Shown: one piece after another, positions 46,599-50,239 of the stretch | Layout: each line of letters opens with the position of its first letter | Numbering within the stretch: the first letter of the stretch is position 1 | From: Cyanobacteria bacterium P01_A01_bin.123 | Lineage (GTDB): Bacteria > Cyanobacteriota > Cyanobacteriia > Phormidesmidales > Phormidesmidaceae | Length of the DNA stretch: 64,000 nucleotides | Direction of reading: 5' to 3' | Assembly: GCA_039815185.1 (NCBI GenBank) | Contig: JBCBZT010000005.1 | Span: 128,001 to 192,000 of the forward strand | Made by a program: the position numbers and the translations under genes | The notes under the pieces: generated by a model | The model's database searches: none | What the model was told of the DNA's origin: nothing | Seen by the model: the letters and a program-made list of their open reading frames with translations, nothing else

Positions 46599-46779
46599 AT
46601 GTCACTAAGCCACTGCATCAACGCTGGATTAGCCCTCAGTTAGGTTGTGTTACGGGCTTAATTTCCGTGCTGATTCATGTTACTCCCTGAGAACTCTAAC
46701 CGCAGTGCTCAGGGGTGCTTCATCTCTCCAGTGGTCAAAAAGTTTCTGATCGGCGTTGCGATCGGCTTCAGCTTCATCA

Positions 46780-46923
46780 AATCTGGCTACCATCTGGTCA
46801 TACATCTGGTCAGCATCTGGCCACCATCTCGCCAGATCTGGCCATCTCGCCAGATGTAACCCCGCCAGATGGCCAGATGCCTTGCCCTAATTAGAACGAG
46901 ATGGGTTAGATGGTGGCCAGATG
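46780..46923. repeat. Array of about 14 CATCT(G/C)G(C/T)-like repeats in two opposed groups
   Basis: Plus copies near 46780, 46791, 46803, 46814, 46825, 46835, 46843; minus copies near 46831, 46849, 46864, 46872, 46897, 46906, 46916. Confidence 0.85.
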
Positions 46924-46926
46924 GCC

Positions 46927-48336
46927 TCAGGAAACATCCCCCAGAGAGTACCGAGGGGTGTCTTTGTCTCCGTCATCTCGTATCCGGCCAGAGCTGGTCA
47001 TTCCGTTCAGGACGAGCTTGATCAAGTCCAAGGACTGCGCCTTCAACGTAGAACGCTTTTGACGAATCTCTGACGCCAGCAGTGGAGCATCGGCACTCGC
47101 TAACACGTCAAGGATCTCCGCTTCTATCTCTGCCAGCGATGCACCATTCGGTTTAGTAGTCTTCAGTGAAGCGTCACTAACATCAGACATAGACTCGCCT
47201 GCATCACCTGTGCCCAACAGCTTGGGTGGTGCAGGCAGGCTCTCAATCTTCAGTCCGTCTAACTCCGACTGTGATAGGTAGGGCGACGGGAAGATAACCG
47301 GGTCACCGATAAGGTTGGACATCATCAAGGGATGTCGATCGCCTTGCAGCTTGCCGAGCGCTATTTTGTACTCTGCATCGATCCTGTCTTTGTATCTGCG
47401 GTTCACAATGCTGCCGTTGTCTACTGCGGCATCAATAGCCTCAAAACCGCCAAGCTGGGAACCTAGGATGAGATAACGGAAATTGCGGCGGACACCTCCA
47501 GAGATGCCAAGGTCGTCAACGTTAGGACTTTGGCTAACCAAGACCAGCTGACAACCAGCGCCCCGGCCAACAGCGGCGAAGACGGTAATCAACGACTTGA
47601 ATTCCTCGGCCAAGGGTTTGAGTACAGACACCGATTTGAGTGTGGTGTATTGGGCCAGCCATTCTTCCACCACCACAATGACTTGCGGCCCGGTGCCCCC
47701 AGTATCCACCCTGGTTTGGGCCAGCTCCAAAACGCGACCAAGAATCCCCACCATGCGCTGAGCGCTTTCGACGGTGGGACGAAAGGGCAACCGGATCACG
47801 TTTTGAGTCGGTACACCCGGCCATGCCGCCCCCTTGGGTTCAAAGGCAATCAGCACCGTTTCTTTTTGGCTAGCCAACTTCGATAGAAGGTAGGTGAGCA
47901 TTGAGCTTTTGCCCGTGTCCGTGGGGCTCAGAACGCCCAAATGAGTACGCCAGGACGACGCGGCCCGGTTCAGGTATTCATCAGGGTCAATGTCGGCAAC
48001 TTGGGTAACGGTAGCCACCAATGCATCAGGCTTCATTTGCTCATAGAGTCGCTGCTGACGACTGGCGGCGCTAATGTCGGCATGGTCTAAGAGAATGCGG
48101 GCAGTATCCACTGCGTTCTCATGGGCCAATCTACCCAGCAACGCCACCATGAACCCAGCCCCAATTAGCCCAGTACTTATCCAATGGCGACGACCCTTCC
48201 CATACTCGTCATTCAGGAAGGTTGCCAAGGCCAATGCAACAGCTAGCCCGGTGGCCAGCCACACTAAAGCGCCCATCCTAAAGCGCTGGTGCAGATGGTT
48301 TTGGAATTCGCTGGGGTGTAACTGCTGCAAACTCAT
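46927..48336 (-). CDS. FtsK/TraB/VirD4-like membrane ATPase with C-terminal winged helix
   Basis: Two N-terminal TM segments; HLGVLSPTDTGKS (variant Walker A), IVVVEEW (Walker B), GR..G..LVL.SQ; EILDVL...LASEIR wHTH-like end. Confidence 0.7.
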   Translation of the reverse strand: MSLQQLHPSEFQNHLHQRFRMGALVWLATGLAVALALATFLNDEYGKGRRHWISTGLIGAGFMVALLGRLAHENAVDTARILLDHADISAASRQQRLYEQMKPDALVATVTQVADIDPDEYLNRAASSWRTHLGVLSPTDTGKSSMLTYLLSKLASQKETVLIAFEPKGAAWPGVPTQNVIRLPFRPTVESAQRMVGILGRVLELAQTRVDTGGTGPQVIVVVEEWLAQYTTLKSVSVLKPLAEEFKSLITVFAAVGRGAGCQLVLVSQSPNVDDLGISGGVRRNFRYLILGSQLGGFEAIDAAVDNGSIVNRRYKDRIDAEYKIALGKLQGDRHPLMMSNLIGDPVIFPSPYLSQSELDGLKIESLPAPPKLLGTGDAGESMSDVSDASLKTTKPNGASLAEIEAEILDVLASADAPLLASEIRQKRSTLKAQSLDLIKLVLNGMTSSGRIRDDGDKDTPRYSLGDVS

Positions 48337-48765
48337 AGCGGCCACCATTCGTTGAACCAGAAAAACTGAGTTGCTAAGCAAACCCCCGCGTTGATTTGGC
48401 AGAACCGAAACAAGCAGTCCACCCGCATGTCGGGCACTTGCATGAACACAGACACCAGTGGGAATCCAGACATCAACGCCAGCAGCCCCCATCCGAATAC
48501 CCAGGGCGGCATAACTTTGGGTCAGGAAACCAAGAGCAATCGCTAAGCGAATTAGTACGGCAACGCCCAAAACCCACTGCACAGCATCCAGCAAGATTCC
48601 TCGTGATGGGATAGCGATAAAATTGCTAAACCTTTGCAGTGACTCAGTTTTGACCCGTAGGCGGTTGGTGTCCAGTGCGATCTGCTGGACTCTGGTTTCA
48701 CCTAGCAACCCAGTGGTTTGCACCTGAACTTTAGGTGCGTCAGTCGGTTGTGTTTTAGTGGCCAT
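48333..48765 (-). pseudogene. Membrane protein gene with an apparent 1-bp insertion near 48516-48518 that fuses it in frame to the ATPase
   Basis: The alternative frame reads MPPWVFGWGLLALMSGFPLVSVF...WWPL* and its TGA overlaps the ATPase ATG (ATGA). Confidence 0.6.
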
Positions 48766-49051
48766 AGTTCTGTACCTCCACGGTGGGGTTCATTGCTTCA
48801 AAGACCATCGCTACAGCCGTGATTGGAAGTGCTAAGCCGATCGCCAGCAGAAACCAAACGATGGCCACCTTGAGCGGGTCATACTCAACCGCTTTGTAAT
48901 GGGCGACAGGTGGCTGCTGGGATTGGGGGTAAACGACTGACAGTGATCGCCCATGCTTGTCGCAGTAGGTCATCGCCAATGGCGGCTGCTGAGCTGGCGA
49001 CGGTAGCTCAATATCGATAGGGATGCGCTCAATCGCGCTGTGATCGGGCAT
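48755..49051 (-). CDS. Small single-TM protein
   Basis: VAIVWFLLAIGLALPITAVAMVF. Confidence 0.55.
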   Translation of the reverse strand: MPDHSAIERIPIDIELPSPAQQPPLAMTYCDKHGRSLSVVYPQSQQPPVAHYKAVEYDPLKVAIVWFLLAIGLALPITAVAMVFEAMNPTVEVQNYGH

Positions 49052-49243
49052 GGTGGGAAATCCTTATGGCAACTGGATTGGGGCTAGTTGAAGCTGAGGC
49101 CACCACAAGCGATGACTAAACAGAAACAGAAGACAAGTGCCGCAGCTATGGGCATGGCTAAAAGGCATACAGCGCCCCAGCCCAGAGTGGTTCTGGGGCT
49201 TGGGGTGGCTGTAGCAGTAGGTGGATTAGTCGTCGTAGCATCG

Positions 49244-49663
49244 TCAGTCTCTGTTCGGCAGCAAGTTCAGACTGGGCGCTGACGGCAATGGCTTTTTTGC
49301 CTCCGCGATAATCGCCTCCAGATCAGACCAGTCGGGATTCTCGAAGCCTTGAAAATGATCGGCGACGCACAGGCGATTTAGCTCTGAGGCAAAGCTCTCT
49401 TGCAGGGTTTTGCCGCTTGCAACGGCATGAGCCTCGTGCGCCAATGCAACGCCCGCATCTTGGGCAAACTTTTGAGCGCCACTAATCTGAAGAGCCAATG
49501 TACTGGCCTGATTGGTGACCACGTTCGCAATACTCGCAGCTTCACCGCTGGAGTTGGGCCTATGTGAGGACGACTGGGTACAGTCGGTACTGCTGGGTCG
49601 TTGGGGCTTCGGTTTCAGGTCTTGGAATGCTGCTTTCTCTTTATCGGTTAAAGGCATCGTCAT
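49244..49663 (-). CDS. Hypothetical protein
   Basis: Overlaps the upstream HTH gene in the operon. Confidence 0.55.
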   Translation of the reverse strand: MTMPLTDKEKAAFQDLKPKPQRPSSTDCTQSSSHRPNSSGEAASIANVVTNQASTLALQISGAQKFAQDAGVALAHEAHAVASGKTLQESFASELNRLCVADHFQGFENPDWSDLEAIIAEAKKPLPSAPSLNLLPNRD

Positions 49664-49922
49664 TCTCCGAAAGGTATAGAAATAGGGATACTCGGGCTTT
49701 TGTCATGTCTCGCTCTTGCTGAAGCTGCCTGCCAATCCAATGCATTTTGAACAGATCTTTAGCGGTGTAGCACCAACGCCCCTGGTCATAAACCAACGCA
49801 ACACCTATAAGCTTTCGCCAGCGCTGCAGTGTGGACTTGGTTAACCGCCGTCCAAGGGACTGCTCCAGCTCTTTTTTGACTTGGTCGGCAGGCGTTAGAT
49901 ACTCAACAAGTTGGGTACTCAT
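49641..49922 (-). CDS. MerR/excisionase-like HTH protein
   Basis: TKSTLQRWR..IG.......R.CYT..DL. Confidence 0.5.
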   Translation of the reverse strand: MSTQLVEYLTPADQVKKELEQSLGRRLTKSTLQRWRKLIGVALVYDQGRWCYTAKDLFKMHWIGRQLQQERDMTKARVSLFLYLSENDDAFNR

Positions 49923-50035
49923 GACGCCCCCCTTGGGTACTCATGGGTACCCTTATAGCACAAAATTAATGCTGATAAGCATAGAATAAGTGCTAATTAC
50001 TCGCTAATATCACTGAGAAGCACAAAGAAGCTAAT

Positions 50036-50239
50036 ATGAGCCCAAAATCAGCAGCCCAAAATAGAATGAGCAAGCGCACGACAATCACGCTCCCAGACAG
50101 CGTTTATGATGATCTAGAGCAATGGGCCGCAAATGAGGGTAGGCCAACTGCTAACTTGGCGGCTTACTTGGTTGAGAATTGCGTCAAGCAGCATTTCCCA
50201 AGCAAGTACAAGTATCAGCAGCCACAGTCAGGCAAGTGA
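50036..50239 (+). CDS. CopG-like ribbon-helix-helix protein
   Basis: SKRTTITLPD.VY.DLE.WA..EGRPTANLAAYLVE. Confidence 0.8.
   Translation: MSPKSAAQNRMSKRTTITLPDSVYDDLEQWAANEGRPTANLAAYLVENCVKQHFPSKYKYQQPQSGK

Follow-up and report, generated by a model that had tools for sequence, protein, structure and literature searches.

The window analysed here, a 64,000-nucleotide stretch from Cyanobacteria bacterium P01_A01_bin.123, holds part of a tailed prophage, and within this prophage lies a module centred on a membrane-anchored ATPase and an array of short repeats. We found that this module is a real feature and, by analogy, a variant of the relaxase-free DNA-pump layout previously known from Streptomyces. 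There, TraB alone directs double-stranded plasmid transfer via 8-bp clt repeats and Spd membrane proteins permit intramycelial spread (PMC4447253, PMC3583192, PMC3429521, PMC12857230). In its anatomy the module very probably represents a translocase bound to the membrane and equipped with its own loading site. Our favoured reading, to which we assign a probability of roughly 60%, is that it serves as a TraB/clt-like pump for double-stranded DNA that would spread the element between cells. Below, G000 denotes the host genome, numbers prefixed with C its contigs (the window is G000:C82:128001-192000) and numbers prefixed with L the homologous loci; other coordinates refer to the window.

An inverted repeat array follows the ATPase gene

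The ATPase gene (46927..48336, minus strand) encodes a protein of 469 amino acids (aa) with two predicted N-terminal transmembrane (TM) helices, an FtsK/HerA-type motor, a flexible linker and a winged helix. At the fourth base past its stop begins an array of 14 CATCTGG-type heptamers (46780-46923) with at most two mismatches each, 13 of them with at most one. The preliminary description of this DNA had reported about 14 such repeats near the ATPase stop; the 14 copies are confirmed, but they form two inverted blocks rather than direct repeats. The outer block (46780..46849, plus strand) consists of seven CATCT(G/C)G-type copies, the first five spaced 11–12 bp apart. The inner, stop-proximal block (46832..46923, minus strand) has seven irregularly spaced copies on the ATPase-gene strand, and the two opposite blocks meet near 46832-46850. 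For CATCTGG, the array is the densest 150-bp interval of the 8.1-Mb genome (13 copies versus 8 in the runner-up), and its best-word score is 16 versus a maximum of 7 in 60 shuffles. Elsewhere in the prophage the word is not enriched (20 exact copies versus 11.5 expected, the array being the excess).

Homologous loci carry arrays of different words

Seventy-one distinct loci entered the scoring, each reaching at least 85 bits against the profile and having a closed frame and 250 bases of downstream sequence; they include the window, the paralogue on C112 and one outsider (L009), and three loci were skipped for short flanks. As the preliminary description had proposed, homologues carry different arrays at their 3' ends: exact-word arrays were found at 40/71 homologue 3' ends versus 2/69 control windows directly upstream. 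A mismatch-tolerant score gave 41/71 homologues versus 8/400 other gene ends of G000. In the clade of the window ATPase all 10 other members with enough flank pass the array test; L025 is marginal, its array lying inside a read-through extension. The words vary (CGTCTCG, CGTCCGG, CGTCTGG, CGTTCGG, CATCCTG, TGTCTTG, GGTGCAC, GGAACC and others) and change among relatives whose motors are over 75% identical. Among the arrays located downstream, both orientations are present in 26/27 and an 11-bp-phased run in 22/27; of 226 same-orientation gaps, 54 equal 11 bp and 105 fall within 10–12 bp.

The position of the array depends on the type of C-terminal tail. Within the 39 loci retained for the co-variation analysis (the 41 passing loci minus L009 and L106), all seven with a three-helix tail have the array inside linker-coding DNA, and 27/32 with a winged-helix tail have it at or past the stop. 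Two loci depart from the usual architecture. On a plasmid of Tolypothrix PCC 7910 (L078:7545-8984) the module seems to be split into N-terminal, motor and tail genes, with TGAAC-type repeats inside the tail gene. At L120:6911-8800 (G790, a hetR-negative host) the ATPase C-terminus looks by eye like a GIY-YIG nuclease and no array is present.

The repeat word co-varies with the tail

The preliminary description had also predicted that the array word co-varies with the tail, and this was the case: in the 39 loci, word similarity correlates with similarity of the last 80 residues (partial rho 0.34, P-value 3e–4) but not with that of the motor (0.05, P-value 0.16). In five loci (L026, L029, L030, L054 and L055) two or three copies of the locus's own word lie inside wing-coding DNA, so that wing amino acids change with the word. 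Because repeats of the clade close to the window overlap wing-coding DNA in this way, the test was repeated without the in-gene copies and the last 28 residues. In the 27 loci of this retest the tail retained its correlation (0.32, P-value 3e–4; motor 0.12, P-value 0.024), and once near-copies had been thinned out, leaving 19 loci, it was lower (tail 0.19, P-value 0.009; motor 0.09, P-value 0.13). In L041, L043, L050 and L052 the motor is unrelated to that of the window, yet tail and word are similar. In a first swap test on the 39 loci no pair reached the thresholds. At the level of sequence, then, the word tracks the putative DNA-binding tail more than the motor. This supports recognition of the word by the tail but does not prove it, since tail and array adjoin and can be exchanged together.

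The ATPase combines an FtsK/HerA-type motor with a winged helix

Eleven of twelve homologues align from the Met at 48336 (P0003 is N-terminally short), and we therefore place the start of the protein there. A single-sequence fold was unusable (predicted local distance difference test, pLDDT, 43); a model built on a 125-row alignment reached a mean pLDDT of 92, with two long N-terminal helices, the motor at about residues 112–365, a loose linker and a compact domain at 400–467. The C-terminal winged-helix domain (about residues 400–469; 46927..47139, minus strand; pLDDT about 95) is the candidate reader of the repeats. Foldseek with this model returned FtsK motors at the top, then TcpA and EccC, and in VIA-align HerA, DndH, EccC, TcpA and FtsK tied (Z 15.0–15.4, root-mean-square deviation 3.3–3.7 over ~210 residues). 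The last domain aligned to winged helices with Z of about 10. Thus, both the FtsK-like membrane-anchored motor and the C-terminal winged-helix-like domain of the preliminary description hold. The motor falls into no recognised family: the window ATPase had no match to PF01580 or the FtsK model, and the C112 copy scored 24.1 against a cut-off of 24, with only 29 residues covered. The family counts 235 representatives at E 1e–10, and the top match in a viral fold search was a Nodularia phage protein.

The Walker A motif, SPTDTGKS, had been flagged as non-canonical. The variant is real, but as a sign of decay it can be ruled out: it is common to the whole subclade, with S at that position in 27/125 aligned relatives, and the Walker B, arginine and sensor Q positions are intact. 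The window ATPase has the Walker A lysine, the Walker B glutamate, Arg258 and Gln269, each of which is conserved in at least 115/125 rows. Two related contigs differ from the window ATPase at seven positions, six of them third codon positions.

A profile of 32 tails matches Zalpha, BlaI/MecI-type and Fur winged helices. A role in Z-DNA binding was rejected, the Zalpha contact residues not being conserved in alignment A3. The presence of repressors among these matches, and the lack of a tail or a clear array in some homologues (L011, L094, L103 and L105), would suit a reading in which the array serves as no more than an operator or a site of recombination and the ATPase does not move the element but acts, for example, in membrane remodelling or superinfection exclusion. 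The array, however, is found at the operon's 3' end or in linker-coding DNA and not at a promoter, as is clt, and we regard this reading as the least probable of those considered.

The module occurs on plasmids, integrative elements and a prophage, mainly in probably filamentous hosts

G000 holds a second copy of the module, on C112, in which both membrane genes recur but the tail differs and the array word is GGTGCAC; its element carries an integrase and a primase-helicase and no terminase. L058, L069 and L071 likewise place the module on elements with integrase and primase only. Fifteen cyanobacterial plasmid records were matched, all typed non-mobilizable by mobility (MOB) typing, which is weak for cyanobacteria. 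They come from Nostoc, Tolypothrix, Calothrix, Allocoleopsis, Pseudanabaena, Moorena, Annamia and Kovacikia, all of them filamentous genera. On the complete plasmids pDU1 (6.4 kb) and pCC7120zeta (5.6 kb) the layout of the window is repeated, with a divergent ribbon-helix-helix (RHH) gene, small genes and the ATPase. No cyanophage was found by tblastn of phage records with three family members as queries, and pattern scans of contigs from viruses and metagenomes, based on the alignment of close homologues, yielded no confirmed locus.

The preliminary description had made its proposal conditional on a filamentous host, and the host genome is positive for hetR, a proxy for this trait. In 401 genomes of the class, 212 of them with hetR, the ATPase was matched in 63 at E 1e–22, although some FtsK-like proteins of other kinds may stand among the few weakest matches, and related genomes do not count as independent. 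Matches were found in 51/212 hetR-positive versus 12/189 hetR-negative genomes. Eleven of the 12 hetR-negative carriers belong to one family (f30) whose protein type also occurs in records named Pseudanabaena or relatives, and which is probably filamentous. Outside it only 1/150 hetR-negative genomes was matched, and that one has no array and a different C-terminus.

These carriers bear on an alternative in which the same pump and loading site serve stability within a lineage, the circle being tethered to the membrane or cleared through the closing septum at cell division, much as FtsK/SpoIIIE handle chromosomes. FtsK is the closest fold by Foldseek, the operon begins with a RacA/MerR-like helix-turn-helix (HTH) gene, pDU1 and pCC7120zeta have no other annotated partition gene, and no crossing of the outer membrane would be required. 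On the other hand, many carriers are integrated, which makes partition needless, and several module-bearing plasmids already have separate ParA, ParAB or ParM genes; for these reasons we favour segregation less. A plain partition role also does not predict the rapid change of the word or the bias towards filamentous hosts. We consider segregation unlikely, although it is the strongest of the rivals.

In at least eight loci (L001, L053, L057, L059, L061, L063, L068 and L122) the module adjoins a terminase-less virus-like gene block, its structural role being judged by gene order alone. This raises the alternative that the ATPase is the packaging or extrusion motor of terminase-less viruses, comparable to inovirus pI, with the array as a hairpin packaging signal and the prophage copy as a stray. 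An N-terminal TM domain is present in the pI of roughly 30% of inovirus-like species (PMC6813254). Folded as a single strand, the window array gives z –4.75, and 14/18 arrays pair somewhat better than their spacer-shuffled versions. With the words held fixed and only the spacers shuffled, however, little pairing beyond that of the controls is left (z –1.9 for the window; over 18 arrays the median is about –1.5, with four at zero); on this basis we rejected the idea that the array exists to form a strictly paired hairpin. The 11-bp phasing fits protein binding on duplex DNA instead. Because carriers without virion genes exist among plasmids and integrative elements, and the prophage has a terminase of its own, we consider the packaging reading improbable.

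The terminase-less elements (L001:72-14127, which is the C112 element, and seven others) deserve a remark of their own. They are integrated, 12–20 kb long, and carry an integrase, a primase-helicase and the module, together with a set of conserved genes that converges on it and has hardly any matches in Pfam. They are possibly an undescribed group of tailless cyanobacterial viruses.

Comparison with known DNA translocases

The closest parallel is the TraB/clt/Spd system of pSVH1, pJV1, pSN22, pWTY27, pIJ101 and the actinomycete integrative and conjugative elements. Both systems combine a TM anchor, an FtsK-fold motor and a winged helix in one protein, have short element-specific repeats from the stop codon, and include small membrane genes with overlapping stops and starts. 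They also share a divergent regulator, the absence of a relaxase, a filamentous host and occurrence on plasmids and integrative elements. The preliminary description had called the module TraB/clt-like, and the layout is indeed alike, but kinship is another matter. A profile of the ATPase family matches pIJ101 Tra (E 6.5e–13) and pJV1 TraB (E 4.6e–7), whereas the TraB model NCBIfam NF041214 gave no match at E 0.01 for the window, C112, pDU1 and L067 ATPases (pJV1 control, 784.5 bits). By these sequence criteria the window ATPase is not a member of the TraB family. A tail profile matched six TraB tails weakly (probability 7.9%, E 0.004). In the tree a weakly supported branch (87/68) splits the family from TraB, two of the seven TraB rows being mis-cut and branches long; a single clade for the family was neither shown nor rejected (approximately unbiased test, P-value 0.16).

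The differences from TraB/clt extend to architecture. The cyanobacterial ATPase is shorter (about 380–520 versus 650–690 aa), has two exchangeable tail types, with the array past the stop or in the linker, and is accompanied by an RHH and not a GntR regulator, in a host with an outer membrane. Two balanced inverted blocks are usual in cyanobacterial arrays, whereas pJV1 and pSN22, scanned in the same way, have direct repeats only, from the stop onward; some other actinomycete TraB loci include inverted copies.

FtsK/SpoIIIE with their guiding words (FtsK-orienting polar sequences, KOPS, and SpoIIIE recognition sequences, SRS), the top Foldseek match, also combine a membrane anchor and a motor with a winged-helix reader of short oriented words. 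Unlike them, the module resides on mobile elements, its words are clustered in one 150-bp array, and the window ATPase has two TM helices and no long linker. TcpA of pCW3 and the motors of pELF linear plasmids resemble it in having an FtsK-like motor, N-terminal TM helices and a place on conjugative elements; pELF differs in requiring two ATPases and a six-TM protein, and a cognate repeat array is not described for these systems in the accessible text of the source (PMC13492992). The window ATPase has weak matches on Enterococcus and Macrococcoides plasmids.

Inovirus pI is likewise a TM-anchored ATPase that belongs to the FtsK-HerA superfamily, beside small TM genes (PMC6813254). Unlike pI, the cyanobacterial ATPase has a putative sequence-reading tail and occurs both without virion genes and beside a terminase; the window ATPase is not the sole packaging ATPase, its 65-kb prophage having terminase, portal, capsid and tail genes. 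Finally, the tailed Streptomyces phages TP1604, YDN12, Geonosis and relatives share the filamentous host and carry a pIJ101 Tra homologue (43–46% identical), annotated as FtsK-like translocase; it belongs to a different ATPase lineage from that of the window.

A possible transfer mechanism and the evidence against it

The FtsK/HerA fold suggests that the ATPase would form a membrane-anchored ring, and co-variation and 11-bp phasing suggest that its winged-helix tails would recognise the heptamer array on double-stranded DNA. The opposite blocks would let motors load both ways from one centre. The excised circular element might then be driven through the membrane by the ATPase, assisted by the small membrane proteins. 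From the analogy with TraB/clt/Spd and the host range, the destination would be a neighbouring cell of the filament or a touching filament. Plasmids and integrative elements would draw on the same pool from which the phage may have acquired the cassette, gaining a second route of spread besides virions.

The absence of conjugation genes noted in the preliminary description extends beyond the window to the whole prophage. Relaxase and type IV secretion system (T4SS) families had no match in 74 prophage open reading frames (ORFs) scanned and none on pDU1 or pCC7120zeta. The same was true of 19/20 homologue flanks, scanned as 111 ORFs (110 of the 197 listed plus one) with ATPases, evident host genes and six loci excluded. 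In these respects the prophage differs from elements with VirD4/TcpA coupling proteins. TcpA acts with a relaxase and a T4SS, and a TcpA-like coupling protein here would need both in trans, with the repeats as accessory sites. TcpA ties among the best structural matches; a MobA/MobL relaxase, together with a clear array, lies 3.5 kb from the ATPase of L067 (G513; L067:4572-11237); and elsewhere in the host genome, on contigs C123, C79 and C15, there are relaxases of the PF03432 and TrwC types. PF03135, PF03389, PF02486 and PF01076, by contrast, were unmatched in the host genome, though these families can miss divergent cyanobacterial proteins. Coupling proteins are not known to combine a tail that reads sequence with a corresponding array. 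We judge the coupling reading very improbable.

Several observations weigh against a pump that spreads DNA between cells, the relaxases of L067 and of the host among them. In cyanobacteria DNA would have to pass thick septal walls and an outer membrane, and no channel protein for crossing either was identified. The fold, common to HerA, EccC and TcpA, leaves the function of the ATPase unfixed. The array thresholds were not reached by 30 to 31 of the 71 homologues; among these are the ATPases of four plasmids (L073-L076), pDU1 and pCC7120zeta included, on which only a few repeat copies are visible by eye. Tail and array lie within 250 bp, so that linkage accounts for part of the co-variation, and related loci do not count as independent. 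The host-range profile was seeded from a filamentous host, hetR is only a proxy, and small genomes with few mobile elements are frequent among those that lack hetR. Lastly, judging by sequence, the copy in the window may be impaired by a frameshift in its 3-TM gene, described below.

Other genes of the operon

The gene order given in the preliminary description (on the minus strand an HTH, a hypothetical, TM genes and the ATPase, with a divergent RHH gene) was located as claimed. The operon begins with a MerR/RacA/Xis-like HTH protein (49641..49922, minus strand), whose match to the NCBIfam RacA/MerR-type model is weak (E 2.6e–4, far below cut-off) and which has no Pfam match. The 139-aa ORF that follows (49244..49663, minus strand) matches no known family and has no homologue among the fetched loci. 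A 98-aa protein with one C-terminal TM helix (48755..49051, minus strand) has homologues in G000:C112 and G508, which stand upstream of the same two genes, for the 3-TM protein and the ATPase. The divergent CopG-type RHH regulator (50036..50239, plus strand; RHH_5, E 4.6e–18) recurs in the same layout on pDU1 and pCC7120zeta.

As for the small TM genes, the 98-aa one-TM ORF stands, but the ORFs at 48333-48765 proved to be halves of a single frameshifted gene. This conserved gene for a 3-TM membrane protein (48333..48765, minus strand), whose stop overlaps the ATPase start, contains one extra base relative to intact copies in a DNA alignment. The frameshift leaves the N-half fused in frame to the ATPase ORF, and hence an in-frame ORF of 612 aa, and the C-half as 59 aa. 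The 612-aa ORF was ruled out as a natural protein, homologues beginning at 48336. Intact relatives of the 3-TM protein (20 distinct loci) are 122–167 aa long, and in close relatives the stop overlaps the ATPase start. The contig of sequencing run X1 has identical letters and no gap at the frameshift site, but X1 may be the source of the window itself; runs X2-X4 cover the window in part, the frameshift site excluded. Searches of the Atlas with the 3-TM protein gave leads under 0.9 only. Near 49085-49157 a TM peptide of 23 aa may be encoded, for which the fetched loci offer no homologue, and a short ORF at 46680-46805 has no family match and could not be confirmed as a gene.

The prophage and its other cargo

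Two 56-bp direct repeats delimit a complete tailed prophage of about 65 kb. The first, attL (8161..8216, plus strand), overlaps the 3' end of tRNA-His; the second, attR, lies beyond the window at G000:C82:201339-201394, beside an integrase. Large and small terminase, portal, major capsid, tail, tape-measure and DUF3854 primase families were matched.

Genes for HU, a second tyrosine recombinase and a sigma-70 factor (41124-44367) lie between the terminase genes and the ATPase module, and a pentapeptide-repeat membrane protein gene (44949-46598) adjoins the array downstream; similar genes stand beside the module in L055. A glycosyl hydrolase family 10 gene (9003-10082) occupies the left end of the prophage, where a lysis gene would sit. 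The prophage also encodes a protein with an eCIS core domain and another whose N-terminus looks similar (57178-59856 and 34031-35335 of the window); a further one is at C112:25373-29413.

Significance

A literature search, outside which most subscription papers, including older work on pDU1, fell, yielded no description of such a cyanobacterial module. A 2025 review gives cyanobacterial conjugation only as a hypothetical MPF-C T4SS, and double-stranded transfer only for Streptomyces (PMC12282955). The model strain Nostoc PCC 7120 has one homologue, alr9504, on a plasmid of its own; no full-text mention of it was found in the literature searched, and in a PCC 7120 proteome it appears with one peptide, as 'unknown protein' (PMC8557916). 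With homologues on this plasmid and on pDU1, the module is accessible to direct test. Common Anabaena vectors derive from pDU1.

If the pump moves DNA between cells, the 15 plasmid records typed non-mobilizable would be mobile, DNA would cross the cells of a filament, and a temperate phage would gain a virion-free route. More tentatively, and with a probability somewhat short of even, filamentous cyanobacteria may own a separately evolved, relaxase-free conjugation, with a one-protein pump, an exchangeable tail and a two-way array, used by plasmids (pDU1 and pCC7120zeta among them), integrative elements and tailed prophages alike. Should this be true, whole genomes would pass the septa and a phage could colonise a filament without virions.

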